This document shows positions 13,203-46,574 of a stretch of 46,574 nucleotides of DNA, one piece after another (position 1 is the stretch's first letter; each line of letters begins with the position of its first letter). The stretch is from a virus: the IMG/VR virus record IMGVR_UViG_3300045988_007914; one strand, 5' to 3'. The position numbers were made by a program, and so were the translations under genes. The notes beneath the pieces were generated by a model that did no database searches, had not been told where the DNA came from, and saw only the letters and a list, made by a program, of their open reading frames with translations.

Positions 13203-13983
13203 CAATATTCCCGAGGAATTAAAGAAACTCGACCAGTGGGTGTGTGCGAATGATGGAAGCAAAGTCCCCATGAAAGCATGGGAGAACGAAGCCGCTTCCT
13301 CCACCAACCCGGAAACATGGTCTGATTTCGAGACTGCTCTCGAATCGTACAACCAGCACTATTACGACTACTGTGGTTTCGTGTTTGCGGACAATGGGTA
13401 TGTCGGGATTGATATTGACGAGGGGTACGATGAAGACGGTCTTATGAGTGTCCTCGGGGCTGATATTGTCGGTAAGTGCCACAGCTATACGGAGAAATCC
13501 CGGAGTGGGCGTGGATTCCATATCCTACTCCGTGGAACTCTCCCCTTCAAGGGCAAGAACAATCTTGCTGGCGTGGAGATTTACAAGGCGGCTCGATACT
13601 TCATTATGACTGGGAACACCCTTCTCTACCGAGAAATCATCGAGAACCAAGAAGCGATTGATTATGTGGTGGAGAAATACTTCCCGGAAGCTCGAGAGAC
13701 CTCCGATAAGGTGGTTGTTGGGCGAGACAAGATATACGCCCCGGTATGGGAAGAACCTGTCGTAAATGGGCGTGTAAAGCTCCGTCCAGTATATCCAAGA
13801 ATCCCGGACGGAAGCCGCAATATCTGTCTCACCTCCCTCGCTGGTATGCTCCACAATCAAGGCTATTCCAAGTCACAGATTTACGAGGAGCTGTTGTACG
13901 CCAATACGGTTGCCTGTGACCCACCTCTTGATAGGAACGAACTGCGAACTATCTGCAACAGCGTCACGAGGTACAAGCGATGA
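13159..13983 (+). CDS. Bifunctional primase-polymerase (prim-pol) with a PriCT-like C-terminus
   Basis: ..GIDIDEG..SRSGRGFHIL..; start uncertain. Confidence 0.7.
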   Translation: MSWKERWQSGVVYYDNIPEELKKLDQWVCANDGSKVPMKAWENEAASSTNPETWSDFETALESYNQHYYDYCGFVFADNGYVGIDIDEGYDEDGLMSVLGADIVGKCHSYTEKSRSGRGFHILLRGTLPFKGKNNLAGVEIYKAARYFIMTGNTLLYREIIENQEAIDYVVEKYFPEARETSDKVVVGRDKIYAPVWEEPVVNGRVKLRPVYPRIPDGSRNICLTSLAGMLHNQGYSKSQIYEELLYANTVACDPPLDRNELRTICNSVTRYKR

Positions 13984-14180
13984 AGATTAAATGCTGTAAG
14001 GACTGCGTTGCTCCGAAGCGACACCCCGGCTGTCACGGTGTATGTCCCGAGTACCTATACGAAAAGGCACTGTGGGAGGAAGAAAAGAAAGTCATTCGTG
14101 AGGAACATAGGCGATTCAGTGAGCTATACGAGCAACGCTCCGAGGGAGTGCGAAAAGCACTTAAACATAGAAGACGATAA
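13980..14180 (+). CDS. Small Cys-rich protein
   Basis: MKIKCCKDCVAPKRHPGCHGVCPE.. Confidence 0.5.
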   Translation: MKIKCCKDCVAPKRHPGCHGVCPEYLYEKALWEEEKKVIREEHRRFSELYEQRSEGVRKALKHRRR

Positions 14181-14193
14181 CTTGCACAGAAAA

Positions 14194-14245
14194 GATAAAA
14201 ATTTATCTTTTAGGTATTGACATTCAATCTTGTATGTGTTATCTT
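14194..14245 (+). promoter_or_regulatory. Operator GATAAAAATTTATC plus an extended -10 promoter (TTGACA-17-TGT-TATCTT)
   Basis: Palindrome at 14194-14207, a 9-nt gap, TTGACA at 14217-14222, TATCTT at 14240-14245. The whole unit is homologous to 20600-20714. Confidence 0.55.
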
Positions 14246-14298
14246 ATAATCACAGCAAGGCAAAAACTTATCCAATAAAGATTAAGGAGGATTTTATC

Positions 14299-14886
14299 AT
14301 GGAAGTTATGAGAAACATGACTATTGACACTGAACTGTTTGAACTGGGAGACATTATCTCCTTCACACTCATCACCGGGGAGAAGGTTAAAGCGAAAGCC
14401 ATTCGTGAGACCCCGAACGGTATGCTTTTCATTACCGTTGACTGTCTCAAGGACGAGCAGAAAATGTTCGAGAATCCCGGCAGAGCCGAAAAGGTTGACT
14501 ACGAACATTCCGACCTTCGCAAGAAGCTGAACGGAGAAATCTTCGAGAGCTTCCCGGAGGAAATCAAGGGTCGCATGGTTGGTATGCGAGTAGGTCAGAC
14601 GAACTGCTTTGATATGCTCCGTATTCCTACCGAGCGTGAAATCTTCGGAGAGAACCCTTACGGTAAGGACGAGCCTGTATCTGTGAGACGCTTCTACGGC
14701 ATGGAGAACCGCCGTGAGCGTATCGCTTTCCAAGGCTCGGAGACAGGTACATGGGAATGGTACTGGTTGCAGAACAAGGTTGAGGATTCCGCTTCCCTTT
14801 TCGCCAGTGTCGACGGCGACGGTCGTGCGGCCTGCGGCGACGCTTCCGATTCTTTTGGCGTTCGCCCGGTCTTTCTCTTATCCTAA
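14299..14886 (+). CDS. DGR target protein 2 (195 aa, C-type-lectin/DUF6273-like fold, no signal peptide or structural N-domain seen)
   Basis: Track ORF trimmed to the ATG at 14299, after AAGGAGG. C-terminus ..WEWYWLQNKVEDSASLFASVDGDGRAACGDASDSFGVRPVFLLS carries VR2. Confidence 0.85.
   Translation: MEVMRNMTIDTELFELGDIISFTLITGEKVKAKAIRETPNGMLFITVDCLKDEQKMFENPGRAEKVDYEHSDLRKKLNGEIFESFPEEIKGRMVGMRVGQTNCFDMLRIPTEREIFGENPYGKDEPVSVRRFYGMENRRERIAFQGSETGTWEWYWLQNKVEDSASLFASVDGDGRAACGDASDSFGVRPVFLLS
14785..14869 (+). repeat. DGR variable repeat VR2
   Basis: 85 nt align without gaps to TR 42232-42316. All 18 mismatches fall on TR adenines. Confidence 0.9.
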
Positions 14887-14889
14887 AAT

Positions 14890-14910
14890 CTCGCCCCCTT
14901 GTGGGGCGAG
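14890..14910 (+). promoter_or_regulatory. GC hairpin 20 nt after VR2 (CTCGCCCC-CTTGT-GGGGCGAG)
   Basis: 8-bp stem and 5-nt loop. A near-identical copy lies at 41651-41671. Confidence 0.7.
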
Positions 14911-14936
14911 TTCAATAAAGAACGGAGGTGAATGTC

Positions 14937-15107
14937 GTGCAGACAAGATGTGAAGACTGTAAGAAAAGATGTGTCTGCCACGCTTGCCCTCTACATAATC
15001 AATGCCGCTACACTTTGAGGTGTAAATCCTCAAAGTGTTACTGCGGAAAATATAGGAGGTTATCAGAAAATGGAACAGAACAAAATCTGTCCTCTCCTCA
15101 CGACTAA
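14937..15107 (+). CDS. Possible Cys-rich small protein (56 aa, GTG start)
   Basis: GGAGGTG lies 6 nt upstream. Own translation: MQTRCEDCKKRCVCHACPLHNQCRYTLRCKSSKCYCGKY.. It is below the track cutoff. Confidence 0.3.
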   Translation: MQTRCEDCKKRCVCHACPLHNQCRYTLRCKSSKCYCGKYRRLSENGTEQNLSSPHD

Positions 15108-15237
15108 CACTGTCGTAGACGAGAATAACACCGTGAAAATTGGCACACAGCCTGTTTTCTGCGTAACCGAGCAGTGTTCGTGGTGGTTGGAGGACAAACA
15201 GAAATGTGCAATCGCAGTTATGGGAGGTAAGAAATAA
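15070..15237 (+). CDS. Small protein (55 aa), TAATG-coupled to the MazF-like gene
   Basis: AGGAGG RBS. MEQNKICPLLTTNTVVDENNTVKIGTQPVFCVTEQCSWWLEDKQKCAIAVMGGKK. Confidence 0.4.
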   Translation: MEQNKICPLLTTNTVVDENNTVKIGTQPVFCVTEQCSWWLEDKQKCAIAVMGGKK

Positions 15238-15695
15238 TGGCATATTACATGAATAAGAGCGTCCCGGCGAAGCGAGGAGATATTTTCTACATTTCCAACT
15301 CCAAGTGCTACGCCACAGACCCGAGTAATACAGAGGGAAGACCAGCAATCGTTGTCTCCTCTGATAAATTGAATGAACACGCAGATGTTGTCGAGGTAGT
15401 CTTTCTCACCACCAAGGAAAAGCGTCTCATGCCTACTCACGCAGAGGTGCTGTGCAAGATTCCTTCAACTGCTCTGTGTGAGACCATCTATACGGTCAAT
15501 AAGGACAGGCTGGGCGATTTCGTCCGTACCTGTACCGATAAGGAAATGGAGGGTGTCAATGCTGGAATCCTCTGCTCACTCGGTATCGCCGCTCCTGTGG
15601 TCGATGGTGAGCCTGTTGACAACTCTGTAACGGTCGAGAGGAATCTTTACAAGCACCTCTACGAAGACCTTCTCAATAAGGTAATGGCGAGGTGA
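15237..15695 (+). CDS. PemK/MazF-fold toxin-like protein with a ~40-aa C-terminal extension
   Basis: ..AKRGDIFYI..EGRPAIVVSSD..VVEVVFLTTK.. matches the MazF/PemK N-terminal pattern. Confidence 0.6.
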   Translation: MAYYMNKSVPAKRGDIFYISNSKCYATDPSNTEGRPAIVVSSDKLNEHADVVEVVFLTTKEKRLMPTHAEVLCKIPSTALCETIYTVNKDRLGDFVRTCTDKEMEGVNAGILCSLGIAAPVVDGEPVDNSVTVERNLYKHLYEDLLNKVMAR

Positions 15696-16108
15696 TGGAT
15701 ATGGGTAAAGGAGTTGATATGAGCTGGGAAGACATTCAGAATGAGTTCGACATTATGAACCGAATGTCGTGCCGCCCGGTTGGGTTGCAAAAAGTCCCCG
15801 GCAATCATATTTTCGATGAAGACCAGTCTGTGAAATGGAACAGAGAACAGGTCGAATTGAATAACAAGAAGTATCAGAGTGAAGTCGCTCGGCTCAACAC
15901 CGAGAAGAACAAGGCTCGAGATTCCGTCTACAATCTGATTATCGAAAAGATTCAGTATGAGGTGGGTCACAGGCTCTCTCGCAAGAAAGCGGAAGCCATT
16001 TGGAATCGTGCCTATGAGGACGGACACTCTTTCGGATTCTATGAAATCCGTTGCCGCCTGTCAGACCTTATTGATTTGGCGATTACTCTGCTGGGAGGTG
16101 ATAAGTAA
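15692..16108 (+). CDS. Hypothetical protein
   Basis: Track ORF. Confidence 0.55.
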   Translation: MMDMGKGVDMSWEDIQNEFDIMNRMSCRPVGLQKVPGNHIFDEDQSVKWNREQVELNNKKYQSEVARLNTEKNKARDSVYNLIIEKIQYEVGHRLSRKKAEAIWNRAYEDGHSFGFYEIRCRLSDLIDLAITLLGGDK

Positions 16109-17598
16109 TGCAAGAGCTTTTCGAGACACGCAACGGTCGTGTCATTATGGACGAGGACTTATCCTCAAAGATGTATCTGATTAAGCAGTATCACCCCGAG
16201 AAAGCAGACGAGACCAGCTCCGGGTTTGAGTGGTCTGAAATGGGTATGGCAAACCTGTTCGGCTTGCTCTACTCTCACGAAGCTCGCTACTGCCCGGAAC
16301 ACAAGAGCTGGTACACCTATCACGAGGGAGCATGGCGTAAGGACGAGGGAGCAATTCTCGTGTCCGAGAAGATTAAAGATTTCGTCCGTCTAATGATTCT
16401 CTACTGCGGAGAAATCGAGGACGATGATACCCGAAAGTCCTACACCGGGTTCGTAAATAAGATGGGTGACAGGCGTATGCGAGATAGAATCCTCAAGGAC
16501 GCAACAGGTGAGCTTCGTATCTCTGCTGTGCAGTTTGACGCAGACCCCTATCTCATTAACTGTCTCAATGGTACATACGACCTTCGAGACTTCTCCTTCC
16601 GGGAACATAGCTGGGACGATTTTCTCACCATGCAGACAGCATTTAGCCATACTATCTCCAAGACGGTTAAGTGTAAACGCTGGGAGAAGTTCATTAAAGA
16701 GGTCACACAGAATGACGAGGACAAAGCAGACTTCCTTCAAAGGGCTTTGGGCTACTCCATGCTGGGTATGAGCAATGAGGAGTGTATGTTCATTCTTCAT
16801 GGTAAGACCACTCGTAACGGTAAGTCTACTCTGCTCAACACCATCGAGACTATGCTCGGTGACTATGCCAAGGTTGCCCCGGTCGGTATGATTTGCCGTG
16901 GAGACCGTCAGAAGGACGCAGAAGCCGCCAGTCCTACCCTTGCCGGGTTGAAGGGCAAACGCTTCGTAACAATGTCCGAGAGCAACGAATACGGCAAGCT
17001 GGACGAGGAGAAAATCAAACAGCTTACAGGTGGTGAGGAAATCTCCGCTCGTGCGCTGTATCAGTCGGCAATCACATTCAAGCCGCAGTTTACGTTATGG
17101 CTTTCCTGTAACGACCTTCCGATGGTGACAGACAAGTCCCTGTTCGCTTCCGAGCGTATCAAGGTGGTAGAGTTCAACCGCCACTTCTCCCCGGAGGAAC
17201 AGGACACTCACCTCAAGGACGAGCTGTGTGAGCAGTCCAGCATGAGCGGCATTTTCATGTGGCTGGTGCGTGGGTATATCCACTACAAGGAGCGTGGACT
17301 TGCTATGAGCGGCAGTCTGAAATCGGTTGTCACCAAGTACGAGCGTGATAACGACCTCGTGTTGCAGTTCCTCGAGAACCGCTGTGAGCGTGTCCCGGAG
17401 GAAAGCTCACCGACCGTTATCAAGGCGAAAGACCTGTACAACGCTTTCAAGATTTGGGCGAAGTCCGAGGGTGCTTATATCCTGTCGGCTCGTAAGTTCA
17501 ATTCTGAAATGGAGCGTCACCCGGAGTGGTTCGACAGGAAATCGACCTCGAGTGGTTATGCAACCTATTGTGGTCTGAAATTGAAGGAGGTGCTGTAA
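16108..17598 (+). CDS. D5/P4-family primase-helicase (SF3 NTPase)
   Basis: ..DPYLINCLNGTYDL.., Walker A HGKTTRNGKST. Confidence 0.85.
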   Translation: MQELFETRNGRVIMDEDLSSKMYLIKQYHPEKADETSSGFEWSEMGMANLFGLLYSHEARYCPEHKSWYTYHEGAWRKDEGAILVSEKIKDFVRLMILYCGEIEDDDTRKSYTGFVNKMGDRRMRDRILKDATGELRISAVQFDADPYLINCLNGTYDLRDFSFREHSWDDFLTMQTAFSHTISKTVKCKRWEKFIKEVTQNDEDKADFLQRALGYSMLGMSNEECMFILHGKTTRNGKSTLLNTIETMLGDYAKVAPVGMICRGDRQKDAEAASPTLAGLKGKRFVTMSESNEYGKLDEEKIKQLTGGEEISARALYQSAITFKPQFTLWLSCNDLPMVTDKSLFASERIKVVEFNRHFSPEEQDTHLKDELCEQSSMSGIFMWLVRGYIHYKERGLAMSGSLKSVVTKYERDNDLVLQFLENRCERVPEESSPTVIKAKDLYNAFKIWAKSEGAYILSARKFNSEMERHPEWFDRKSTSSGYATYCGLKLKEVL

Positions 17599-19314: not shown

Positions 19315-19392
19315 AAAAACGACATTTACCAAACTATCTGAAAAGGATTGAAAAACAATCTTTTTATAAGAACGAGTTGTTCTTATTATTAC

Positions 19393-19503
19393 AGTAGTTA
19401 AAGTAGCTGTTCTCAAGGTATTGCGTGTAACTTCCTCTATATAGAAAAATCCCTATATATAGAAGTTATACGCAAAAACCGATTTTCAACTACTTCTACT
19501 ACT
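19393..19503. repeat. Nested-palindromic repeat element, copy A (weaker dyad symmetry extends over 19381-19521)
   Basis: AGTAGTTAAAGTAG...CTACTTCTACTACT termini and inner arms GCGTGTAACTTCCTCTATATA / TATATAGAAGTTATACGC. Homologous to 23082-23190 and, inverted, to 46041-46149. Confidence 0.85.
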
Positions 19504-19533
19504 GCAATAAGAATAAGAAGAAAGGAGACTGAA

Positions 19534-20480: not shown

Positions 20481-20536
20481 TTCCATATAATGCGAATTTT
20501 GCGCCCGGTTCAATTCGTAAATTTAGAATTTAGGTA

Positions 20537-20565
20537 TTGACAATTCGTATAATAAGAATTAGAAT
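20537..20565 (+). promoter_or_regulatory. Copy of the immunity-region rightward promoter (TTGACA-17-TAGAAT)
   Basis: 20510-20571 aligns with 1901-1962 at about 85 percent identity. A 34-nt core differs at 1 base. Confidence 0.55.
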
Positions 20566-20607
20566 AACAATAACAACACAAACAAGATAAACCGCCAACA
20601 CGAAAAA

Positions 20608-20659
20608 GATAAATTTTTATCTGAAAAGTATTGACAAACAATCTTGAAAGTGTTATTGT
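20608..20659 (+). promoter_or_regulatory. Operator GATAAATTTTTATC plus an extended -10 promoter (TTGACA-17-TGT-TATTGT)
   Basis: Palindrome at 20608-20621, a 9-nt gap, TTGACA at 20631-20636, TATTGT at 20654-20659. Confidence 0.55.
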
Positions 20660-20714
20660 ATAGTCAAGGCAAGACAAGAAACAACACAAATAAGATTATA
20701 TGGAGGTTTTCAAA

Positions 20715-22718: not shown

Positions 22719-22788
22719 ATTGACAAGGGGCGAAACCGGGCGAGGGAGTACGCTGAATATTCTCAAAAAATAAAAAGACCCTATAAAA

Positions 22789-22840
22789 GATAATTTCTTA
22801 TCCTATCAGTGTTGACAATCTCCCTTTCTCGTGCTATACT
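22789..22840 (+). promoter_or_regulatory. Operator GATAATTTCTTATC plus an extended -10 promoter (TTGACA-17-TGC-TATACT)
   Basis: Palindrome at 22789-22802, a 9-nt gap, TTGACA at 22812-22817, TATACT at 22835-22840. Confidence 0.55.
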
Positions 22841-22872: not shown

Positions 22873-23082
22873 ATGGTTAAGAATAACATTGAAGTTGATG
22901 TAAAGGTGAAGCTCCTCGAAGCTGGGAAGACACAACAGCAGTTGGGTGAAGAAATCGGCACTACTGGACAGTACATCAACCGAGTTCTCAAGAAGAATGG
23001 TGGAATCGTGAACGATACCTTCGTGAAAATGATGGACGCTCTCGGTTATAACATCGTTCTCACCTACGAAAAGAAGGATTGA
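22873..23082 (+). CDS. Small XRE-family HTH regulator (69 aa)
   Basis: ..GKTQQQLGEEIGTTGQYINRVLK.. HTH. AGGAGG RBS. Confidence 0.7.
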   Translation: MVKNNIEVDVKVKLLEAGKTQQQLGEEIGTTGQYINRVLKKNGGIVNDTFVKMMDALGYNIVLTYEKKD

Positions 23083-23190
23083 AGTAGTTAAAGTAGTTGA
23101 AAACAGCATTTTGCGTGTAACTTCCTCTTAGTACACGCATATATAGCAAAAGTTACCGCAATTTTTGATTTTCTACTACTTTTACTACTT
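23082..23190. repeat. Nested-palindromic repeat element, copy B
   Basis: AAGTAGTTAAAGTAGTTGAAAA...TTTTCTACTACTTTTACTACTT. It starts on the last base of the HTH stop codon and ends 17 nt before the recombinase GTG. Confidence 0.85.
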
Positions 23191-23207
23191 GAGGAGGTGA
23201 ATATCTC

Positions 23208-31926: not shown

Positions 31927-32375
31927 GTGATTCGCTGTTGACAGATGAATCCGCTAACAAGGGGAGCGAGCGTGAGAATCGCTCTGCTCCCCCTTCTTAT
32001 TCGGAGATTTTTCTCGCAAAGTTCCCCTATTACTTATCAATAGGCATGACGGAAGAACAATACTGGGATAGAGATTCCACTCTCGTGAAGTCCTACCGCA
32101 AAGCGGAGGAACTTCGCAAAGAGAGGGTCAATCAAGAAATGTGGTTACAGGGTATGTACATCTATGACGCTATTTCTCGTCTGTCTCCGATTCTTCGTGC
32201 TTTCGCCAAGAAGGGAACTAAAGCCCAACCTTATGTTGAAGAAGCATATCCCATCAATAAAAAGACGGTGGAGGAAGCAGAACTCAAGAAGGAAAAGGCT
32301 AAGTCTGAAAAGGGTCTGCGCTATATGCAAGCGTATATGGTACAGGCAAATAAGCAGTTACAAGAAAGGAAGTGA
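31920..32375 (+). CDS. -1 frame extension of the chaperone (T-like part of a G/GT pair)
   Basis: Track ORF in the -1 frame relative to 31597..31926, with no good RBS of its own. Confidence 0.6.
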   Translation: MVSDSLLTDESANKGSERENRSAPPSYSEIFLAKFPYYLSIGMTEEQYWDRDSTLVKSYRKAEELRKERVNQEMWLQGMYIYDAISRLSPILRAFAKKGTKAQPYVEEAYPINKKTVEEAELKKEKAKSEKGLRYMQAYMVQANKQLQERK

Positions 32376-35300
32376 GTTTTATGCCTACTACAATCGAACA
32401 ACTCGAATTGGAAGTTCAGTCGAGTTCCACCTCGGCTGTCGCTGGTATAGACGCTCTTTCCGCTTCTTTGTCCAAACTCAAAAATGCAGTTAGGGGCGGT
32501 GTCGGATTAACAAGCGTTGCAAATCAAGTACGCAATCTCGATACCGCCCTTAAAAGCATGGATAGTTCCGGGGCAGACAAGATTGACAAGCTCGCTTCCA
32601 GTTTGGAAAAGCTGAAAGGTCTCGGCAGTCTCAAGATTTCGTCTTCCATCGGAAATCAGCTTCAAAATATCGGTAGTGCCGCCGCTTCTCTCACTGGTGT
32701 AGATTTCAGTGCTATGGAGAAGCTGGGTACAGCACTCCAACCGCTGAACAATTTGAACGCTTCCGGGCTAAAGTCCACAATCAATGCGCTCAATAAGTTA
32801 CCGAAACTGGCAGACACCCTTGACAACATGGACATGACTAAGTTCACCAGTCAGATTCAGCAGTTGTCTACGGCTCTTGCTCCGCTGACAAATCAGCTCA
32901 ATGCTGTAACTACGGCGTTCAATCGTCTTCCTACGAACATTCAGAGGGCTATTACCGTCACGAACAGAATCTCGCAAGAGAACAATAAGGCGGCAAATAG
33001 TTACATGAATCTGTATGCCAAAATCAAAATGGCTATGGGTGTTGTGCGTACTGGTGCGAGAGTAATTGCTTCGTGGATAACACAGTCCAACCAGTACATT
33101 GAGGATTTGAACCTGTTTACCGCTTCTATGGGTAAATACGCAGAGGAAGCACAGAACTACGCAGAAGCAGTCAGCGAAGCTCTCGGTATCGACCCGGGCG
33201 AGTTCATGCGAAATCAAGGTGTGTTCAATACCATCATTAGCGGTTTCGGCGTGGCGAGCGATAAAGCGTACCTTATGTCCAAGAACCTCACACAGCTCGG
33301 CTACGACATTTCTTCGTTCTTCAACATTTCGTTTGAGGACGCAATGCAGAAGTTACAGTCCGGCATTGCTGGTGAGCTTGAACCGCTTCGTAGACTGGGT
33401 TACGACCTGTCTGTTGCAAGACTGCAAGAGGAAGCTCTTGCTCTCGGTATCGAGAAAAAGGTCTCTGCTATGACACAGGCTGAAAAGTCGCAGTTGCGTT
33501 ACTACGCAATTATGACACAGGTAACTACCGCTCAAGGTGATATGGCTCGTACTCTGAACGCTCCGGCTAACCAGCTTCGTGTTTTACAGGCACAGGTTAC
33601 GCAGTGTGCAAGAGCTTTGGGTAATATCTTTATCCCGGCTCTGAACGCAGTATTACCGTATGCAATCGCTTTGGCGAAGATTGTCCGTATGCTGGCAAAC
33701 TCTATCGCAAGTCTGTTCGGATTCAAACTCCCGGAGGTAGATTATTCCGGCATTTCTGCTGGTGCTTCTGCGGTTGGCGATTTGGCTGACAACGCCGGGG
33801 ACGCTTCCGATGGACTGGGTAAAGCCGGGAAAGCGGCTAAGAAGCTGAAAAATGCTCTGCTCGGTATTGACGAGCTGAACGTCCTATCTAAAGACGATAG
33901 TTCCAGCGGAAGCGGTAGTGGCTCGGGTGCTGGTATCGGTGGTGGGGATTTAGGCATTGACCTTCCTACCTACGATTTCCTCGGTGACGCAATCACTTCC
34001 AAGGTTGACGAAATCGTTCAGATGATTAAGGACGCTATGTGGGAAATCACTGCTGTTATCAGCGGATTCTTACTGGCAATCGGTACTATCCTTGTTGTCA
34101 CAGGTGCAAACGTTCCTCTCGGTCTCGGTCTCATGGCTGTTGGTGCTGTCGGTTTGGCGGCTTCGGTAATGGCGAACTGGAACGGAATGTCGGAACGGTT
34201 GGCGAAGGTTCTCACCCTCGTTACCGGGGTACTGGGCGGCTTCCTGTTAGCTATCGGTGCTTTCCTTGTATTTTCGGGTGTCAATGTACCGCTCGGTGCT
34301 GGTCTCATGGTGGCTGGTGCGGCGGCTCTCGGTACTGCGGCTGTAATTAACTGGAAGTTCCTCAACGGAGACCTGTCGAACGCTCTGTCCATTCTCACGG
34401 CAATCGTGAGCGGTGCGTTGCTGGCTATGGGTGCATTGTTCGCCTTTACTGGTGTTGATGTTCCTCTCGGTATCGCATTGATGGCGGCTGGTGCTGTCGG
34501 CATGGTTACAGCAATCGGTCTTAACTGGGATTCGATGTCCGACCCTCTCCGTAGGACAATCGGTATGCTCGAAACCATTGTTGGAGGTGCATTGCTGACA
34601 TTCGGTGCAATTCTCGCTCTGACTGGCGTAAACGTTCCTCTCGGTGTTGCGATGATTGCCGCTGGTGCGGTTTCTGTCGCTTCGGCAGTAGCTTTGAACT
34701 GGAACTCCTTAACAGGTGATGTTCAAGAATCCGTACTAAGCATTGTGGCTATCGTGAGCGGTGCTTTAATCGGTGTCGGTGCAATCCTCGCTCTGACAGG
34801 AGTTGCAACCGGGCTGGGTATTGCGATGATTGCCGCTGGTGCTGTCGGTCTTGCCGCAACGGTTGGTTTGAATTGGAATAGTATGCCGGACAGTATCAGA
34901 AAGGTTACTACGAAGATTCTTCTCATTGCTGGGGCGGCTTCCATTGCCATAGGTATGATTCTTGCTTTCACAGGAGTTGCAACTCCTCTCGGCGTAGGTC
35001 TTATCCTTGCTGGTGCGGCGGCTCTCGGTACGGCTGTGGCTCTTAACTGGGACACTTTGACAAACAAGCTAAAGGGCGTAACTACTAAAATACTTGCTAT
35101 CGCTGGGGCGGCGGCTCTTGCAATCGGTATTATCCTGTGCTTCACCGGGGTTGGTATTCCTCTCGGTGTTGGATTGATATTATCGGGTGCGGCGGCTCTC
35201 GGTACAGCAGTAGCTATTAACTGGGAAACCATCAAAGAAAAAATCAAGGGAGTTTTCACCAAGATTAAATCAATGGCTGGTTCTCTCGGCAAACTCGCTA

Positions 35301-37066
35301 TCGGTCTCATGTTGTGTCTGACAGGTGTTGGTATTCCTCTCGGTCTTGCTCTCATTGCCGATGGAGTTAAAGACTTCGCTACTGGAAAACCTGTTAGCTG
35401 GGATTCGATGGTGAGCGGAATTAAGGAAGCTCTCGGAAATATATCTGACGAGTGGAACAAATTCAAAAAGAAGGTTAAGAACAGCAAGCCTGTTCAATTC
35501 CTTGCCGAAGTAAAGAACAATGCTTCGGAATGGTGGGACAACGTAAAGGATTGGTGGTCTGACAAAACGAAAGACGGTCTCTCTCTTGAAACTGGCGTAA
35601 AGCTCGTGAAAGATGGCTGGTCTTCTGTGAAGAACTGGATTGGTAACATTCCGGCTGTGAAACAGGGTGTTGGGCTTCTGAAATCCGGCTGGTCTACCGT
35701 GAAAAACTGGATAGGCAACATTCCAACCGTAGACCAAGCTGTCGCACTCGCAAAGAACGGCTGGCAGACGGTCAAGGGCTGGATTGGCAATATCCCGGGA
35801 GTATCGCAAGCAGTAAGTCTTGCGAAATCCGGCTGGAACTCTGTAAGAGAGTGGGTTGGTAATATCCCGGTTGTCAGTCAAGGAATCTCGTTGCTGAAAT
35901 CCGGCTGGACAACGGTTAAAAACTGGGTCGGCAATATCCCTACTCTGTCCCAAGCAATCAATCTCATTAAGAGCGGTTGGCAGACAGTAAAGGGCTGGAT
36001 TGGTAACATTCCTACTCTGTCCCAAGCAATCAGCCTTATCAAGAGTGGTTGGACTACGGTTAAGAATTGGATTGGAAATATCCCGGTTCTTTCTCAAGGT
36101 ATCAGCTTACTCAAGTCGGGTTGGACTACGGTTAAAAACTGGATTGGTAACATTCCTACGCTTTCGCAAGGAATCTCGTTGCTGAAATCCGGCTGGTCTA
36201 CCGTAAAGAACTGGATTGGTAGTCTTCCTGTTATCGCTCAAGGTATTTCGCTTTTCAAGTCCGGGTGGACAACGATTCAGAACTGGATTGGTAGCCACAC
36301 CGTAGGTGTCGGTATCTCTCTATGGAAAAACGGTTGGCGTTCTATCTCGAGCTTCGTTGGTACTTCGGTATCTGTCGGTATCTCGCTTTTCAAATCCGGC
36401 TGGACTTCTATTAAGAAGTTCTTCGGACTGGCGAACGGCGGTATCGTTGGTGCAAACGGCGGCGTGAAGATGTTCGCTTCCGGCGGTATCATCACTCCGA
36501 ATATGTGGAAAGCAATGCCGAAATATGCTGGCGGCACGAACCGAGCGCATGGCTCTATGTTCGTTGCTGGTGAGAGCGGTGCAGAGTTGGTAGGTCATGT
36601 AAATGGCACTACCGAGGTGCTGAACCGATTCCAGCTTGCTTCTGTCATGCACAGCTCCATCGTAAGCGGTATGGCACAGTTCTCCGGGTACTGGCAGTCC
36701 ATGTCTCGAGACATTGTGACTTGTGCGAACGGTATTATCAATGCCGTTGTCGTAAGTACCGCCGGAATCAACGAAAACCTCGTGCTTGCTTCGGCAAGCG
36801 GTTATGACCCTTATAACTCGCTGGCACAGACGGTGTACGAAGATTCCAAGAAATCCTATGACGGTGCATATTCCGATGATTCGTGGTCTCGCAATATGCG
36901 TGAGTTCTACCACGAGTATGTCGAACCTACTCTCAAGGAAATCGCTACCGATACCAAGAGACAGGCAGACAAGAAGGAACAGACCATCGTAAAGGTCGGC
37001 AACCGTACAATCAATGACGCTGTTACCACGCAGAAGGAAGCGAACGGTTTCAGCTTCACCGAGTAA
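32372..37066 (+). CDS. Tape measure protein (1564 aa; start GTG 32372 or ATG 32381)
   Basis: Size, position and internal repeats. Confidence 0.9.
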   Translation: MSFMPTTIEQLELEVQSSSTSAVAGIDALSASLSKLKNAVRGGVGLTSVANQVRNLDTALKSMDSSGADKIDKLASSLEKLKGLGSLKISSSIGNQLQNIGSAAASLTGVDFSAMEKLGTALQPLNNLNASGLKSTINALNKLPKLADTLDNMDMTKFTSQIQQLSTALAPLTNQLNAVTTAFNRLPTNIQRAITVTNRISQENNKAANSYMNLYAKIKMAMGVVRTGARVIASWITQSNQYIEDLNLFTASMGKYAEEAQNYAEAVSEALGIDPGEFMRNQGVFNTIISGFGVASDKAYLMSKNLTQLGYDISSFFNISFEDAMQKLQSGIAGELEPLRRLGYDLSVARLQEEALALGIEKKVSAMTQAEKSQLRYYAIMTQVTTAQGDMARTLNAPANQLRVLQAQVTQCARALGNIFIPALNAVLPYAIALAKIVRMLANSIASLFGFKLPEVDYSGISAGASAVGDLADNAGDASDGLGKAGKAAKKLKNALLGIDELNVLSKDDSSSGSGSGSGAGIGGGDLGIDLPTYDFLGDAITSKVDEIVQMIKDAMWEITAVISGFLLAIGTILVVTGANVPLGLGLMAVGAVGLAASVMANWNGMSERLAKVLTLVTGVLGGFLLAIGAFLVFSGVNVPLGAGLMVAGAAALGTAAVINWKFLNGDLSNALSILTAIVSGALLAMGALFAFTGVDVPLGIALMAAGAVGMVTAIGLNWDSMSDPLRRTIGMLETIVGGALLTFGAILALTGVNVPLGVAMIAAGAVSVASAVALNWNSLTGDVQESVLSIVAIVSGALIGVGAILALTGVATGLGIAMIAAGAVGLAATVGLNWNSMPDSIRKVTTKILLIAGAASIAIGMILAFTGVATPLGVGLILAGAAALGTAVALNWDTLTNKLKGVTTKILAIAGAAALAIGIILCFTGVGIPLGVGLILSGAAALGTAVAINWETIKEKIKGVFTKIKSMAGSLGKLAIGLMLCLTGVGIPLGLALIADGVKDFATGKPVSWDSMVSGIKEALGNISDEWNKFKKKVKNSKPVQFLAEVKNNASEWWDNVKDWWSDKTKDGLSLETGVKLVKDGWSSVKNWIGNIPAVKQGVGLLKSGWSTVKNWIGNIPTVDQAVALAKNGWQTVKGWIGNIPGVSQAVSLAKSGWNSVREWVGNIPVVSQGISLLKSGWTTVKNWVGNIPTLSQAINLIKSGWQTVKGWIGNIPTLSQAISLIKSGWTTVKNWIGNIPVLSQGISLLKSGWTTVKNWIGNIPTLSQGISLLKSGWSTVKNWIGSLPVIAQGISLFKSGWTTIQNWIGSHTVGVGISLWKNGWRSISSFVGTSVSVGISLFKSGWTSIKKFFGLANGGIVGANGGVKMFASGGIITPNMWKAMPKYAGGTNRAHGSMFVAGESGAELVGHVNGTTEVLNRFQLASVMHSSIVSGMAQFSGYWQSMSRDIVTCANGIINAVVVSTAGINENLVLASASGYDPYNSLAQTVYEDSKKSYDGAYSDDSWSRNMREFYHEYVEPTLKEIATDTKRQADKKEQTIVKVGNRTINDAVTTQKEANGFSFTE
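34040..35412 (+). repeat. In-frame ~58-aa (174-nt) repeats, 7 full plus 1 partial; each looks like a two-helix hydrophobic hairpin ending in ..NW..
   Basis: The unit VTTKILAIAGAAALAIGIILCFTGVGIPLGVGLILSGAAALGTAVAINWETIKEKIKG recurs with variation. Confidence 0.8.
35573..36428 (+). repeat. In-frame 24-aa (72-nt) repeats, 12 copies
   Basis: GISLLKSGWTTVKNWIGNIPTLSQ consensus. 12 K(S/N/D)GW cores counted. Confidence 0.85.
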
Positions 37067-40744: not shown

Positions 40745-41647
40745 ATGAGTGCAATCAGTATTGAAACCAAGAAAGTGACGGAACTCACGGCGTTCACCAC
40801 ACCGACCGATTCGTGTCTGATTCCGATTCACGATGGCACAGGCTTGAAGAAAATCACCTTTGCCAATTTCAGAGCCAAGGCGGTTGAGGGTACGGAAGCG
40901 AAAATCGCTCCTCTGCTCTTTAGCAACGCCGGGGCGCACAATGCAATTTACCGTGGTAAGTCGCTGGGTAACACCGTGACTACCGCCCAGTATGCCGCTA
41001 TCAAGGCTGGTACATTCGATGATTTATACATCGGTGACTACTGGACTATCGGCGGTGTCAACTACCGTATTGCGGCGTTCGATTACTACCTCAACAGTGG
41101 TGATACGAACTGTACTACTCACCATGTAGTTATCGTGCCGGACACTTGCCTGTACAACGCACAAATGCACAACACCAGCTCCGGCAGTTGGGAAAGCGGT
41201 GCGGCAAATACTACGGCTGGCGGCTATGTCGGCTCGGATATGTACAAGAGCAATCTCGAACAGGCTAAGACCACTATCAAGAGTGCGTTCAGCGGTCATG
41301 TTCTGAAACACAGAATCTATCTTACGAACGCTGTTGCGAATGGTCGTGCTTCCGGCGGCGCATGGTGCGATTCCGAAGTTGACCTTATGTGCGAGCAGAT
41401 GGTCTACGGCAGTGGTATTTTCTCCCCTGTTTCTGACGGTAGCAATGTCCCGGCTAACTACCGTGTCGAGAAATCCCAGTTGCCGCTGTTCCAGCATGAG
41501 CCGAGCCGTATTTGCAATCGTGCGACATGGTGGTTAAGAGACGTTATTACCGCTTCCTTTTTCGCCTTTGTCGACTACTACGGTGATGCGGGCTACAACT
41601 TCGCTTCCTTTTCTATTGGCGTTCGCCCGGCTTTCTGTATATCTTAA
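40745..41647 (+). CDS. DGR target protein 1: receptor-binding tail fibre with a C-type-lectin-fold C-terminus
   Basis: C-terminus ..WWLRDVITASFFAFVDYYGDAGYNFASFSIGVRPAFCIS carries VR1. Confidence 0.9.
   Translation: MSAISIETKKVTELTAFTTPTDSCLIPIHDGTGLKKITFANFRAKAVEGTEAKIAPLLFSNAGAHNAIYRGKSLGNTVTTAQYAAIKAGTFDDLYIGDYWTIGGVNYRIAAFDYYLNSGDTNCTTHHVVIVPDTCLYNAQMHNTSSGSWESGAANTTAGGYVGSDMYKSNLEQAKTTIKSAFSGHVLKHRIYLTNAVANGRASGGAWCDSEVDLMCEQMVYGSGIFSPVSDGSNVPANYRVEKSQLPLFQHEPSRICNRATWWLRDVITASFFAFVDYYGDAGYNFASFSIGVRPAFCIS
41550..41635 (+). repeat. DGR variable repeat VR1
   Basis: 41550-41630 aligns without gaps to TR 42236-42316. All 15 mismatches fall on TR adenines. Confidence 0.9.
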
Positions 41648-41650
41648 ATC

Positions 41651-41671
41651 TGCGCCCCCTTGTGGGGCGCA
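41651..41671 (+). promoter_or_regulatory. GC hairpin 20 nt after VR1 (TGCGCCCC-CTTGT-GGGGCGCA)
   Basis: Same loop, spacing and flanking AATCT as the hairpin at 14890-14910. Confidence 0.7.
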
Positions 41672-41690
41672 CAAGGAGGTTTATTAACAA

Positions 41691-42233
41691 GTGTCTGTAT
41701 TGAAATCGAAACGAAAACCGTCACAGTTTGAGGTATTTCACCACCTCAACAAAATGCGTAAGGAGGTCACGGATTTACTGCTCCGTGATTTCGGGTACGA
41801 CCTCGACAAAGCCGTGAAGAAAGTCGAAACGACCTTCGGCGGCAGACCGTATGAGGAGTTATCACCCGATGAAAAAGTCCGATATGAAAAGCTCATGGAA
41901 AAGAACACTGCGTTTGCAGAATGGTTCATCGCAGACGAGCGAAAAGTGATTGTTGATTGTCTGCGTAATATCACCGAGGAGGTATATGTTGCAAACAGCA
42001 TTTACCCAACCTACCGGGAAGAACTGGTTGAGCGTAGAGTTCACCAAGACCGAGCAGTCGGACAGTGTTATAGGCTCACACAGGAATTGCAGTATGCTAT
42101 CGAGACCCTTCCTGTCGATGTGAACAAGTACCTTCGTTTCGCTGAAATGATACAGACCGAAATAAACCTTCTTAAAGGTTGGAGAAAGTCTGACAACAAG
42201 TTCAAGTCGGCTCTCCAAGAGGGTAATCTCTGA
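41691..42233 (+). CDS. avd: Avd-like accessory protein (180 aa, helical)
   Basis: Lies between VR1 and TR as in canonical DGRs. GTG start after AAGGAGG. Longer than typical Avd proteins. Confidence 0.6.
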   Translation: MSVLKSKRKPSQFEVFHHLNKMRKEVTDLLLRDFGYDLDKAVKKVETTFGGRPYEELSPDEKVRYEKLMEKNTAFAEWFIADERKVIVDCLRNITEEVYVANSIYPTYREELVERRVHQDRAVGQCYRLTQELQYAIETLPVDVNKYLRFAEMIQTEINLLKGWRKSDNKFKSALQEGNL

Positions 42234-42321
42234 TTCCGCTTCCAATTTCGCCAATGTCAACAACAACGGTAATGCGAACTACAACAACGCTTCCAATTCT
42301 AATGGCGTTCGCCCGGATTTC
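42232..42321 (+). repeat. DGR template repeat (TR)
   Basis: 23 adenines in the 81-nt core, arranged as 11 AAY codons plus TAC in the target frame. GC-rich 3' end GGCGTTCGCCCGG is shared with both VRs. Confidence 0.9.
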
Positions 42322-42386
42322 GATTCTGTGATTGAGTAGCCTATCGAGCGTTTCACAGACAGAGAAAGGAGAGATTATCCTTCCGT

Positions 42387-43598
42387 ATGGTAAATACTAA
42401 ATGCGACACCTCCTATTACGATAGCCGAGGTTATCAGCGCAAGATATTTGATGGAAATGTTCTTTACGAAAGTAAAGCTAAAGCAATAAAAGGTAGTGAT
42501 TGGAAACCACAGGTACAGAGGTTTAACATGACCTATCTGTTGGAGTTATCGAAAATGCAACGAGACCTTGAGAACATGGAGTATGAGTTCTTACCAACTA
42601 CAAACTTCACCTTGCATGAACGAGGAAAGCTCCGGCGTATTACAGGCGAACAGGTTCAAGACAGAATCGTGAAACACGCTCTCTGTGACGAAGTTTTGAA
42701 TCCTCTGATTGAACCACACCTCATTTATGACAATGGAGCAAGCGTTGCCGGAAAAGGTATCGCTTTCACTCGTAAGAGGTTACTCACCCACCTTCGGAAA
42801 TATTATGCACAGCATGGTAGCAACGAAGGGTACATTCTTCTGATAGACTTCTCGAAATACTACGACAATATCAGACATGATGTGTTGTTGAAGTTGTTTG
42901 AGCAGTATGTCGATGATGAACACGCCCTATGGCTTCTGCGGAAGACCGTAGAACGCTCAAGGATTGATGTATCGTACATGAGTGATGAAGAATACGAACA
43001 TTGTCTCGACAAGTTGTTTGATTCTCTCCTCTATCAGTATATGAACCCGAAGCTGTTCACAGGCGAAAAGTTCATGGGAAAGCACCTCAATATCGGAGAC
43101 CAAGTGGCACAGACCGCCGGAATCTCTTACCGAATACGAATTGATAACTATGTCAAAATCGTTCGAGGTGTAAAATTCTACGCTGGCTACATGGACGATA
43201 GTTATGCTATCCACGAGAGCAAAGAGTTCTTACAGGAGCTTCTTGAGGACATTATCGAGATAGCGAACGAACTCGGAATCACGGTCAATACCCGGAAGAC
43301 GAGAATCTGTAAGCTCTCCGAGCATTGGCGATTTCTTCAAGTTCAATACTCTCTAACGGACACCGGGAGGGTGATTCAGAAAATCAATCCCAAACGGCTT
43401 ACCGCAATGAGACGGAAAATGAAGAAACTCGCTCCGAAGCTAACAGAAAAGGAGTTTACGGACTTCTATAAGAGTTGGTTTAAGAATCATTACAAAATAA
43501 TGAGTAAGAAACAACGAAGTAACATGGACACCCTATTCAATCAATTAAAGGAGGTAACGAAATGTACACTATCACCCTTGCCAATGGCAAAAAGCTGA
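42387..43598 (+). CDS. DGR reverse transcriptase
   Basis: ..LLIDFSKYYDNI.., NIGDQVAQ (compare the DGR-type xGxxxSQ motif), AGYMDDSY. Confidence 0.9.
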   Translation: MVNTKCDTSYYDSRGYQRKIFDGNVLYESKAKAIKGSDWKPQVQRFNMTYLLELSKMQRDLENMEYEFLPTTNFTLHERGKLRRITGEQVQDRIVKHALCDEVLNPLIEPHLIYDNGASVAGKGIAFTRKRLLTHLRKYYAQHGSNEGYILLIDFSKYYDNIRHDVLLKLFEQYVDDEHALWLLRKTVERSRIDVSYMSDEEYEHCLDKLFDSLLYQYMNPKLFTGEKFMGKHLNIGDQVAQTAGISYRIRIDNYVKIVRGVKFYAGYMDDSYAIHESKEFLQELLEDIIEIANELGITVNTRKTRICKLSEHWRFLQVQYSLTDTGRVIQKINPKRLTAMRRKMKKLAPKLTEKEFTDFYKSWFKNHYKIMSKKQRSNMDTLFNQLKEVTKCTLSPLPMAKS

Positions 43599-46040: not shown

Positions 46041-46149
46041 AAGTAGTAAAAGTAGTTGAAAATCGGTTTTTGCGTAAACTTTTGCTATATATGCGTGTAT
46101 ATAGAGGAAGTTATACGAAAAAAGCCAAGAACAGCTACTTTAACTACTT
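46041..46149. repeat. Nested-palindromic repeat element, copy C (inverted relative to A and B)
   Basis: Its reverse complement shares AGTAGTTAAAGTAGCTGTTCT and ACGCAAAAACCGATTTTCAACTACTT with copy A, and CACGCATATATAGCAAAAGTT with copy B. Confidence 0.85.
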
Positions 46150-46178
46150 CAAACATCAATTTTAAGGAGGAAATCAAC

Positions 46179-46456: not shown

Positions 46457-46574
46457 TACTATGAAAACAAATCCGACACAGTGCTTCACGAAAAAGAATG
46501 AGTTCGGATTTGCACTATTTGGTGGAGCTGTGCGCTCAATATCCGAACTCGAGATAGTGAGCGTATTGTTCCCC
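46442..46574 (-). CDS. int: C-terminal end of the large serine recombinase (46520-46574 duplicates 1-55)
   Basis: Frame checked codon by codon across the junction: ..SSSDIERTAPP|NSANPNSFFFVKHCVGFVFIVEDVG, stop codon at 46444-46442. Confidence 0.8.
   Translation of the reverse strand, partial: GNNTLTISSSDIERTAPPNSANPNSFFFVKHCVGFVFIVEDVG
46520..46574. repeat. Exact 55-nt copy of bases 1-55 (terminal overlap of a circular assembly)
   Basis: TGGTGGAGCTGTGCGCTCAATATCCGAACTCGAGATAGTGAGCGTATTGTTCCCC is present at both ends. Confidence 0.95.

Follow-up and report, generated by a model that had tools for sequence, protein, structure and literature searches.

Whether the end of the tail module in this viral genome holds a complete diversity-generating retroelement (DGR), or a reverse transcriptase (RT) gene lying beside an unrelated duplication, is the question raised by positions 40,745 to 43,598 of the window, by which we mean the whole 46,574-nucleotide stretch of DNA that was analysed. 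An earlier note had described a complete cassette at this site, made up of a target gene with a variable repeat (VR1), a hairpin, an Avd-like gene, a template repeat (TR) and an RT; the analysis bore out this description and added a second variable repeat (VR2). We conclude, with a probability of roughly 0.95, that the cassette and its two targets form a complete DGR of the adenine-specific mutagenic retrohoming type, carried by a gut Firmicutes phage of 46.5 kb. The cassette is arranged in the order target, avd, TR and RT, and all genes, repeats and RNA elements given below lie on the + strand (the two hairpins are given without strand). The best isolate match was a Dorea prophage; a cultured Dorea isolate carries the element as a prophage, and the system should therefore be experimentally tractable.

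The repeats were compared by three-way alignment. The TR (42236–42316; core of 81 nt with 23 adenines) aligned without gaps over 81 nt with VR1 (41550–41630), which corresponds to residues 269–296 at the 3′ end of the first target gene, 686 nt away. As the earlier note had claimed, all 15 of the mismatches among the 81 positions fell on TR adenines (11 A>T and 4 A>G), an outcome with a chance probability of 6e-11. Read in the target frame, the TR gives S A S N F A N V N N N G N A N Y N N A S N S N G V R P D, and its adenine codons are 11 AAY codons and one TAC codon, again in agreement with that note. The same template matched VR2 (14789–14869), which sits at the 3′ end of another gene, 27 kb distant from the RT; each of the 18 mismatches between VR2 and the TR is at a TR adenine (P about 7e-14). 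Both VRs end 5–6 codons ahead of the stop codon, and each terminates in the GC-rich element GGCGTTCGCCCGG, which is identical in VR1 (41618–41630), TR (42304–42316) and VR2 (14857–14869) and directly after which the VRs and the TR diverge; by analogy with BPP-1 (PMC3240598), this element is IMH-like, a counterpart of IMH/IMH*. The TR had been placed on the last codons of the avd-like gene, which holds approximately, since the core starts 3 nt past the TGA stop codon (42231–42233). The homology between TR and VR2 begins at 42232, within this stop codon, and the segment that is reverse-transcribed is probably 42232–42317.

The variation among related genomes follows the same pattern. In 18 near-identical genomes every VR1 was different (18 distinct VR1 versus 2 distinct TR sequences), the pairwise difference per site being 0.187 in VR1 as a whole (0.644 at its A positions versus 0.0057 elsewhere), about 0.02 in the flanks and 0.0014 in the TR. 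The TR was unchanged in 21 of 23 close relatives, each with a different VR1, and the 62 related loci having both repeats showed 882 mismatches at adenines versus 11 at other positions. VR2 was similarly diverse (37 distinct sequences among 41 related loci). Possible exchanges of flanks between VR1 and VR2 were observed in the related loci L022/L139 and L115. At the protein level, the first target has more than 8000 database homologues with variation concentrated at the 12 TR-adenine codons; in 117 of these homologues, entropy reached 2.3–3.1 bits only at the 11 AAY codons and was 0.63 bits at the TAC codon. The comparison with related phage genomes that the earlier note had proposed thus revealed VR divergence confined to adenines and a conserved TR, and this contrast among close genomes indicates that mutagenic homing is ongoing. 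Hypervariability is common in receptor-binding tips, and point mutation with diversifying selection, or recombination between alleles (for which the possible flank exchanges would speak), might generate VR diversity without reverse transcription. The variation is, however, limited to the A positions of a separate, invariant template 686 nt away, at the ratio of 882 to 11 given above; neither selection nor recombination can single out template adenines, and we regard this explanation as close to untenable.

The identity of the RT is consistent with mutagenic retrohoming. The gene at 42387–43598 encodes a protein of 403 aa with a Pfam RVT_1 match (8.9e-13), and the motifs attributed to it beforehand, YMDD and an IGDQVAQ in place of the DGR-typical xGxxxSQ, are both present. 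It belongs to PHROG 1423 (1.2e-54), the same family as the Bordetella bRT (1.9e-125), and its best PDB match was bRT (8ub7); these matches place it on the DGR side. At 90% identity the RT falls in a cluster of 6988 member sequences. Were the RT instead of group II intron, retron, Abi or DRT origin, and so part of a different retroelement or of a defence system, the TR and VRs would represent an unrelated duplication. Weak partial matches to group II intron RT/maturase (62.8 bits versus a cut-off of 300), Drt3a and UG-type RTs point in that direction, but the group II intron (TIGR04416), retron and Drt3a/DRT matches were all far under their family cut-offs, PADLOC returned only generic partial RT matches, and the top PHROG and PDB matches were DGR RTs. 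An Rfam search found no intron or retron RNA. Moreover, such an origin would leave to chance an adenine-only pattern with a probability of about 1e-10 to 1e-13 that recurs in dozens of relatives, so that we give it practically no credence.

Two features of the RT set its clade apart. An insertion of about 35–45 aa between motifs 3 and 4 is clade-specific, and motif 4 departs from the DGR signature [ILV]GxxxSQ in that a literal SQ is absent; YxDD is present as YMDD. Alignment of RTs showed that IGDQVAQ is found clade-wide, with Ala replacing the Ser of the Fontainebleau, Shimadzu and BPP-1 enzymes. The Ile and Gln of motif 4, residues that in bRT contact template and dNTP, are retained.

The Ala in motif 4 and a frameshift-like stop ahead of the TR could be regarded as signs of decay, in which case the cassette would be nonfunctional in this genome and its VR/TR differences inherited from an active ancestor. 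The avd-like ORF does stop at 42231–42233, while in many relatives it reads in frame across the entire TR, and the RT has AQ instead of SQ. Against this, all ORFs are intact, and the variant with a stop after 180 aa is the common form, with database clusters of up to 2273 sequences of that length. The AQ is conserved down to 50% RT identity in loci where adenines are the only positions at which the VRs depart from the TR of the same locus, and the 18 genomes that share the cassette, with RTs 98–100% identical, each carry a different VR1. Decay of the cassette is accordingly improbable; DGR activity is evident for the lineage, rather than for this copy.

The accessory gene (41691–42233) encodes a helical protein of 180 aa at the site where Avd is normally found, and its assignment was approached by profile and structure comparison. 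Residues 87–176 matched PHROG 3206, ‘Avd protein of DGR' (3.3e-5), which also contains the BPP-1 Avd (8.8e-29); hhalign related the protein to the Avd of Roseburia phage Shimadzu with 96.5% probability (E 8e-10), and one homologue in nr that is 79% identical bears the name Avd-like. An AlphaFold2 model (pLDDT 80) is all-helical, with helices at residues 10–31, 38–48, 59–102, 109–139 and 144–177. Searches of Pfam (including bAvd, PF22296) and NCBIfam gave no match to the protein, nor did a sequence search of the PDB or hhalign against BPP-1 Avd, even by a profile of 55 sequences. Foldseek with the model returned nothing at E≤1e-3, the top probability (0.92) being to 2rld of the S23 ribosomal protein family. 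Avd protomers are four-helix bundles that assemble into a pentameric barrel and bind the RT. The helical nature of the product, as proposed from the sequence, is supported by the model, and its link to Avd by PHROG 3206 and the Shimadzu Avd. On these sequence comparisons, the protein is probably a remote Avd homologue.

The first target gene (40745–41647; 300 aa) closes the tail module, and its 3′ end holds VR1. The earlier designation of a tail-fibre locus fits the surroundings, as the gene follows one resembling tail-collar fibre genes and precedes the lysis genes; the protein itself is less clear, with weak hits in PHROG among virion structural and tail fibre proteins and a Pfam DUF6273 match on residues 241–299 of 23.4 bits, 0.1 under the cut-off of 23.5. 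The AlphaFold2 target model was of low confidence (pLDDT 30). The second target gene (14296–14886; about 196 aa, with an ATG at 14296 in a mechanical ORF that opens at 14230) carries VR2 at its 3′ end and encodes a single DUF6273 domain, scoring 37.3 bits, above the Pfam cut-off, and matching PHROG 21980 (3.4e-19). DUF6273 has been described as a domain of C-lectin fold (PMC10743442) that DGRs target, the VR being C-terminal (PMC10743442, PMC11792537). Neither target contains Ig-like (tentaclin or Hoc-like) domains. The second gene lies outside the cassette, in a variable island inside the replication module that adjoins a MazF-like gene, and its site between two primase genes is kept in relatives. 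It has its own promoter-like site, and its protein lacks an evident signal peptide.

Beyond the coding sequences, the cassette contains several nucleic-acid elements. The hairpin claimed for this site is present as a GC-rich hairpin/cruciform at 41651–41671, past the stop codon of the first target and 20 nt downstream of VR1, with an 8-bp stem (TGCGCCCC/GGGGCGCA) and a CTTGT loop (DNA fold −10.9 kcal/mol, z = −4.0). The same element follows VR2, also by 20 nt, at 14890–14910 (CTCGCCCC/GGGGCGAG, loop CTTGT; −10.5 kcal/mol, z = −4.8). The stem sequence varies in relatives through compensatory changes. Hairpins of the BPP-1 type have loops with a 4-nt GRNA consensus (PMC3240598) rather than 5-nt CTTGT, and by analogy with them a role in homing may be assigned to the present hairpins.

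Around the TR, a 13-bp RNA duplex is predicted between 42219–42231, the 3′ end of the avd-like ORF directly upstream of the TR, and 42370–42382 (AGAGATTATCCTT), which overlaps a GGAG-rich stretch before the RT start codon. This duplex, which brackets the TR, was paired in 96.9% of cells in 27 distinct sequences, with compensatory changes at 8 of its 13 pairs (26 cells versus 6.5 ± 2.7 in shuffled and ≤7 in slid controls; 0 of 500 shuffles as high). It is a candidate equivalent of the avd:Sp ‘cPRT Stop' duplex of BPP-1 (bioRxiv 10.1101/2023.10.23.563531). After the TR, a spacer stem-loop at 42325–42359 consists of a lower stem (42325–42331/42353–42359), an upper stem (42339–41/42346–49) and a UAUC loop; all 7 pairs of the lower stem and one of the 3 in the upper stem showed covariation, and the spacer structure as a whole showed 85 doubly changed cells versus 24 ± 8 in shuffled and ≤14 in slid controls, making it a candidate Avd-binding stem-loop. 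BPP-1 is reported to have such a stem-loop and TR-bracketing duplex, and both have been predicted for 207 further DGRs (10.1101/2023.10.23.563531). Covariation supports three elements that match the Bordetella model, namely the VR hairpin, the post-TR stem-loop and the 13-bp duplex. In addition, UUUC directly past the TR (42318–42321) is predicted to pair with GAAA at 42364–42367 (RNAalifold helix 1); these pairs are invariant in 35–36 of 36 sequences and hence give no covariation signal. They form a candidate template:primer duplex in which A42367 may be the priming nucleotide; it lies 2 nt ahead of the long duplex's 3′ arm and corresponds in position to A56 of the BPP-1 Sp.

Taken together, these elements suggest how diversification could proceed. 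An RNA of about 42219–42386, comprising the avd-like 3′ end, the TR and a 70-nt spacer, would fold into three elements: the 13-bp duplex closing a loop that contains the TR, the stem-loop right after the TR, and the short UUUC:GAAA duplex, which would set A42367 beside the TR 3′ end. By analogy with BPP-1, priming is expected to occur in cis at A42367, and a complex of the RT and the Avd-like protein would copy from about 42317 down to a termination point at 42232, misincorporating opposite the 23 template adenines during cDNA synthesis. The cDNA would then replace the homologous 81 nt in VR1 and VR2, the recipients being marked by the GC-rich GGCGTTCGCCCGG and, 20 nt beyond, by the GC-rich hairpin. 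Each event could rewrite 11 AAY codons (15 amino acids each and no stops) and one TAC codon (Y/S/C/F) on the DUF6273 (C-type-lectin-like) domain, allowing up to about 3.5e13 protein variants per target and presumably changing ligand or receptor specificity, if the targets bind receptors as those of BPP-1 do.

A further reading concerns what is diversified and by which kind of machinery. Because the second target is a small single-domain protein with no evident signal peptide, and its gene has its own promoter-like site and lies in a variable island beside a MazF-like gene, between the two halves of the primase, it may be something other than a virion receptor-binding protein: a DGR-diversified intracellular or host-expressed protein, such as a variable sensor or an exclusion factor linked to the neighbouring toxin. 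As a lesser variant, the RT with its clade-wide Ala in motif 4 and its insertion, the enlarged Avd and a non-GRNA, orientation-flipping hairpin loop might together constitute a mechanistically distinct DGR sub-type. We consider the two proposals jointly to be doubtful; if the former were true, the function that a phage DGR diversifies here would be non-structural.

The DGR described here is readily compared with known systems. It resembles the prototype, BPP-1 (mtd-avd-TR-brt), in the order of target, accessory gene, TR and RT near tail and lysis genes, in adenine-only differences between TR and VR, in a VR at the target 3′ end, in a GC-rich element ending both repeats and a GC-rich hairpin after the VR (PMC3240598), in an RNA duplex of about 13 bp that joins sequences upstream and downstream of the TR, with a post-TR stem-loop (10.1101/2023.10.23.563531), and in the PHROG and best PDB match of its RT. 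It differs in that the RTs are about 24–25% identical, with the extra 35–45 aa and IGDQVAQ here versus IGSLTSQ in BPP-1; the accessory protein has 180 aa versus 128 aa and lacks a direct sequence match; the TR is 81 nt versus 134 nt and the spacer 70 nt versus about 144 nt; in the hairpin, CTTGT (5 nt) takes the place of a GRNA loop; a DUF6273 protein replaces Mtd as the target; and a second target shares the TR. The closest deposited phage RTs are those of Acutalibacter phage Fontainebleau and Roseburia phage Shimadzu (43% and 34% identity), cultured gut Firmicutes phages with the same gene order, position at the tail-module end and DUF6273-type targets. Fontainebleau shares the RT insertion and has a 184-aa accessory protein that is 34% identical and annotated merely as hypothetical, while the annotated Avd of Shimadzu is the one matched by hhalign; on the other hand, neither phage has nucleotide-level similarity to the window, both have Ser in motif 4 (IGNQVSQ and LGSETSQ, respectively), and Shimadzu has an RT without the insertion and a 136-aa Avd.

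The use of one TR for two DUF6273/C-lectin targets of different architectures, one of them small and single-domain, is also found in gut phages nd4/nd12 and Faecalibacterium prophages with tentaclin and small DUF6273 targets (PMC10743442, PMC11792537), and the RTs of nd4 and nd12 are detectable relatives (26–30% identity). In contrast to those systems, the targets here have no Ig-like domains, both VRs are C-terminal, and the second target lies 27 kb off in the replication-module island instead of in the cassette. Among the DGR-carrying GuFi gut Firmicutes phage clusters, a vOTU of 46 kb is described whose DGR is active and in which two genes have 10–11 nonsynonymous changes in the last 100 bp (bioRxiv 10.64898/2026.01.26.701711), by the preprint's description the same picture as in the window; the hosts reported by Hi-C are Gemmiger (bioRxiv 10.64898/2026.01.26.701711), whereas the best isolate match here is a Dorea prophage. 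With DUF6273/C-lectin targets, two-target cassettes and DGR-rich gut Firmicutes phages already published, knowledge of DGRs is unchanged in these respects, and the system adds a well-documented case to a known type. It is nonetheless a very clean natural one, abundant in public data and serving two targets from one 81-nt template, in which the comparative data supply exact coordinates for the candidate priming and termination sites and the RNA architecture proposed from Bordetella cryo-EM is shown to be preserved through compensatory changes in a distant lineage of Firmicutes phages.

The template repeat (TR, 42236-42316) was realigned with the variable repeat at the 3' end of the first target gene (VR1, 41550-41630), revealing a gapless match over 81 nt with 15 mismatches, all of which fall on TR adenines (11 A>T and 4 A>G changes). 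The TR contains 23 adenines, and the chance of 15 of 15 mismatches being placed on 23 of 81 positions is 6 × 10−11. Taken in the reading frame of target ORF 40745-41647, the TR reads SASNFANVNNNGNANYNNASNSNGVRPD, which places all 23 adenines in 11 AAY codons and one TAC codon; the coordinates, mismatch and adenine counts and codon arrangement proposed for this repeat pair in the earlier note were all reproduced by the realignment. Furthermore, a whole-window repeat search identified a third copy, VR2 (14789-14869), at the 3' end of the ORF at 14230-14886; this copy differs from the TR at 18 positions, and every one of them is a TR adenine (18/18). The three copies share the 3' terminus GGCGTTCGCCCGG, right after which both VRs depart from the TR.

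To place these repeats among their relatives, an RT-based scan of IMG/VR was conducted, yielding 80 loci. The TR was the same as that of the window in 21 of the 23 closest loci (91–100% RT identity; 83% for one locus, L023), and VR1 differed from that of the window in every close locus that includes it. Comparison of 62 loci, each with its own TR, gave 882 mismatches at adenines versus 11 elsewhere. Among 18 genomes alignable in register, the mean pairwise difference per site was 0.187 for VR1 as a whole, 0.644 at its TR-adenine positions and 0.0057 at its other positions, relative to 0.0014 for the TR, 0.000 for the spacer and 0.012–0.022 for the flanking genes. For the second target, a scan with the VR2 3'-flank pattern recovered 44 loci, 41 of which carried a complete VR2 in 37 distinct sequences, with the variation at adenine positions. 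At the protein level, more than 8,000 target homologues were found in the database; the VR peptide was unique in each of the 117 closest 300-aa homologues, where entropies of 2.3–3.1 bits were reached solely at the 11 AAY codons (TAC codon, 0.63 bits). Judged from these sequences, both targets show the pattern that continuing mutagenic retrohoming leaves in a population. No match to the cassette was obtained by megablast against 50,697 phage records, and hence no close relative is deposited among them. Two joins between the target regions were also seen: a VR2-type 3' tail is attached to a VR1-type target gene in L022/L139 (related loci on contig 3300045988_008704), and in L115 (contig 3300045988_002943), a VR1-type target gene adjoins MazF-like and primase genes that belong to the surroundings of VR2. 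These represent either recombination between the VR1 and VR2 regions or assembly chimeras across the shared repeat.

The RT (42387-43598) matches Pfam RVT_1 (8.9 × 10−13) and PHROG 1423 (1.2 × 10−54), a family that also contains the Bordetella bRT (1.9 × 10−125). Its best match among solved structures is bRT (8ub7), with group II intron RTs ranking behind, and models of group II, retron and DRT enzymes gave partial matches far under their cut-offs. When the RT is aligned to its counterparts in BPP-1, Roseburia phage Shimadzu and Acutalibacter phage Fontainebleau, YMDD is present, and an insertion of ∼35–45 aa separates motifs 3 and 4, a feature that among the three only the Fontainebleau RT shares. 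Motif 4 reads IGDQVAQ, where the three other RTs have SQ. Because 119 of 120 database homologues have this alanine, as do loci with RT identities as low as 50%, its conservation marks it as a clade trait compatible with adenine mutagenesis and not as a defect.

The 180-aa protein encoded between the first target and the TR (41691-42233) had no Pfam or NCBIfam match, and neither Pfam searches with 55 family members nor a PDB sequence search with the 55-sequence profile returned anything relevant. It does match PHROG 3206, annotated as 'Avd protein of DGR' (3.3 × 10−5), which also takes in the Avd proteins of BPP-1 (8.8 × 10−29) and Shimadzu (2.5 × 10−7). The profile of the accessory family, which comprises 737 representative clusters, aligned with Shimadzu Avd at 96.5% probability; hhalign of the 30- or 55-sequence profile against BPP-1 Avd gave no match. 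The AlphaFold2 model (pLDDT 80) is all-helical with five helices, and a Foldseek search with it against the PDB gave nothing at E≤10−3, mostly helical-bundle noise, the top probability (0.92) being for 2rld, a member of the S23 ribosomal protein family. We regard the protein as a putative remote, enlarged Avd homologue. The earlier note had the TR beginning on the last codons of this ORF; in the window, the ORF ends with the TGA at 42231-42233 and the TR lies at or just after the stop, as in some other relatives. In many relatives (database homologues P0132, P0161, P0171, P0237 and others), the ORF lacks a stop ahead of the TR. These read-through ORFs take in the TR, translated in the frame of the target (...SDSASNFANVNNNGNANYNNASNSNGVRPDFDSVIE), and end at the position of the TAG at 42338-42340, giving proteins of 211–216 aa.

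Pfam DUF6273, described in published work as a DGR target domain of C-lectin fold whose C-terminal end carries the VR (PMC10743442, PMC11792537), was matched by target 2 at 37.3 bits and by target 1 at 23.4 bits against a cut-off of 23.5. The AlphaFold2 model of the 300-aa target failed (pLDDT 30) on an alignment that was too shallow (94–97% identical sequences plus target 2), so the basis for assigning a C-lectin fold is Pfam together with published work. Exactly 20 nt past each VR lies a GC-rich hairpin with an 8-bp stem and a CTTGT loop (41651-41671 and 14890-14910), with DNA folding z-scores of −4.0 after VR1 and −4.8 after VR2. The VR1 hairpin was considered as an intrinsic terminator and rejected, as its GC-stem register has no following T-run. 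Relatives carry compensatory changes in the stem (for example, GCGCCCC/GGGGCGC, GCGACCC/GGGTCGC and CCCCACCCC/GGGGTGGGG), which fits the finding in BPP-1 that stem structure, but not stem sequence, matters (PMC3240598). The 5-nt CTTGT loop differs from the GRNA consensus reported for BPP-1 (PMC3240598). Some relatives carry the hairpin in exactly reverse-complemented form, CCCC-ACAAG-GGGG instead of the usual CCCC-CTTGT-GGGG, with otherwise near-identical flanks (locus L067 compared with L069 after VR1; loci L131 and L116 after VR2). This is a small loop inversion occurring in separate lineages and at both targets, and is notable because the BPP-1 loop has been reported to act in a sequence-dependent manner (PMC3240598).

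For the RNA around the TR, the case for structure comes from covariation and not from energy, since the minimum free energy of the single sequence at 42200-42400 indicated a stability no higher than that of shuffles (z=0.32); an Rfam search of the cassette and the whole window returned nothing. A consensus structure built from 36 distinct spacer sequences contains a stem-loop (42325-42359) with compensatory changes in 7 of 7 lower-stem pairs and in one upper-stem pair. Across the spacer structure as a whole, paired cells make up 96.9% and 85 cells are doubly changed; shuffles gave 24±8 doubly changed cells and slid controls no more than 14. A long-range helix of 13 bp between the end of the avd-like ORF (42219-42231) and the sequence just before the RT start (42370-42382) was first suggested by single-sequence folding and then borne out by inspection of the relatives: 8 of its pairs covary, and its 26 doubly changed cells (shuffles, 6.5±2.7) were not approached by any shuffle or slid register. 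RNAalifold proposed instead a local hairpin sequestering GGAG (42368-42371/42381-42384), which was dropped in favour of the long-range duplex because its changes are one-sided only, against the 8 covarying pairs of the duplex. Between the stem-loop and the long-range duplex, a candidate primer duplex could form by pairing of UUUC (42318-42321), which is invariant, with GAAA (42364-42367).

This layout matches that of the Bordetella DGR RNA, which has a stem-loop just after the TR, a template:primer duplex with the priming adenosine 2 nt before the avd:spacer duplex, and halting of cDNA synthesis by the latter; duplexes averaging 13 bp have been predicted for 207 other DGRs (bioRxiv 10.1101/2023.10.23.563531). 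By analogy, A42367 would serve as the primer and the copied segment would run from 42317 down to 42232. The homology between the TR and the VRs extends over exactly 42232-42317, position 42317 included, where the TR has A, VR1 has C and VR2 has T. The non-coding AGAGAAAGGAG upstream of the RT gene (42361-42371) is near-invariant in all relatives to ∼60% RT identity, with A or G at its positions 1 and 3. The RNA elements (candidate primer strand and start of the duplex arm) account for its conservation better than translation does, as its GGAG is 15 nt away from the RT start codon, a longer distance than is typical of ribosome-binding sites.

The two ends of the window (1-55 and 46520-46574) carry an exact direct repeat of 55 nt, which indicates a complete phage genome of ∼46.5 kb that is circularly closed or terminally redundant. 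A tail-collar-fibre-like gene is the upstream neighbour of target 1, and small ORFs and an endolysin gene lie 3' of the cassette. A Dorea ammoniilytica isolate encodes a 99%-identical RT on one of its contigs (272 kb), and the phage is therefore probably temperate on Lachnospiraceae; hosts from metagenome-assembled genomes (Akkermansia, Bacteroides and Spirochaetales) were disregarded as binning noise, the matches being scattered across phyla. Target 2 is located in a variable island (13980-16108) with the prim-pol N-terminal gene on one side (13159-13983) and the primase/helicase C-terminal gene on the other (16108-17598); the island also holds a 66-aa ORF, a MazF-like gene (15237-15695) and a 138-aa ORF. 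In relatives, the position of target 2 is kept and the remaining island genes are gained or lost. The promoter-like site of target 2 (TTGACA-17-TATCTT, 14217-14245) belongs to a repeat family (1903-1961, 14185-14284, 20512-20570, 20599-20698, 22787-22816 and 33842-33871) with a palindromic box, AAGATAAAnnTTTATCTT, immediately upstream of TTGACA. These repeats resemble operator-promoter units under a single regulator, and one of the repeats putatively drives target 2. Elsewhere, a ∼120-nt element occurs in three copies (19388-19507, 23078-23193 and 46041-46152), each made up of two repeat families (D11/D19 and D10) that are seemingly imperfect inverted arms of each other; the arms are degenerate, as an inverted-repeat search with 9-nt seeds found nothing. 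The tape-measure-like ORF (32372-37066, 1,564 aa) has two tandem periodicities within 34096-36426, namely a 174-nt unit present eight times (34096-35403) and a 72-nt unit present eight to nine times (35594-36426).

Taken together, the DGR is real, and the earlier note was right to interpret 40745-43598 as one: the defining features that can be tested in sequence were found, apart from the C-lectin-like fold of the targets, which is a putative one (DUF6273 at 37.3 bits, and at 23.4 versus 23.5; model pLDDT 30). Its value is as an abundant, tractable example that provides covariation backing for a conserved DGR RNA architecture. The cassette deviates in the Ala for Ser of motif 4, the RT insertion, the enlarged divergent Avd-like protein, the short TR and spacer, the non-GRNA hairpin loop and the distant second target, all of which are variation inside the known DGR range. 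In prophages, targets that are not adjacent are a common finding (PMC5758913), gut phages with DUF6273 cassettes serving two targets have already been published (PMC10743442, PMC11792537), and two hypervariable gene ends have been described in a gut Firmicutes vOTU of 46 kb (10.64898/2026.01.26.701711).
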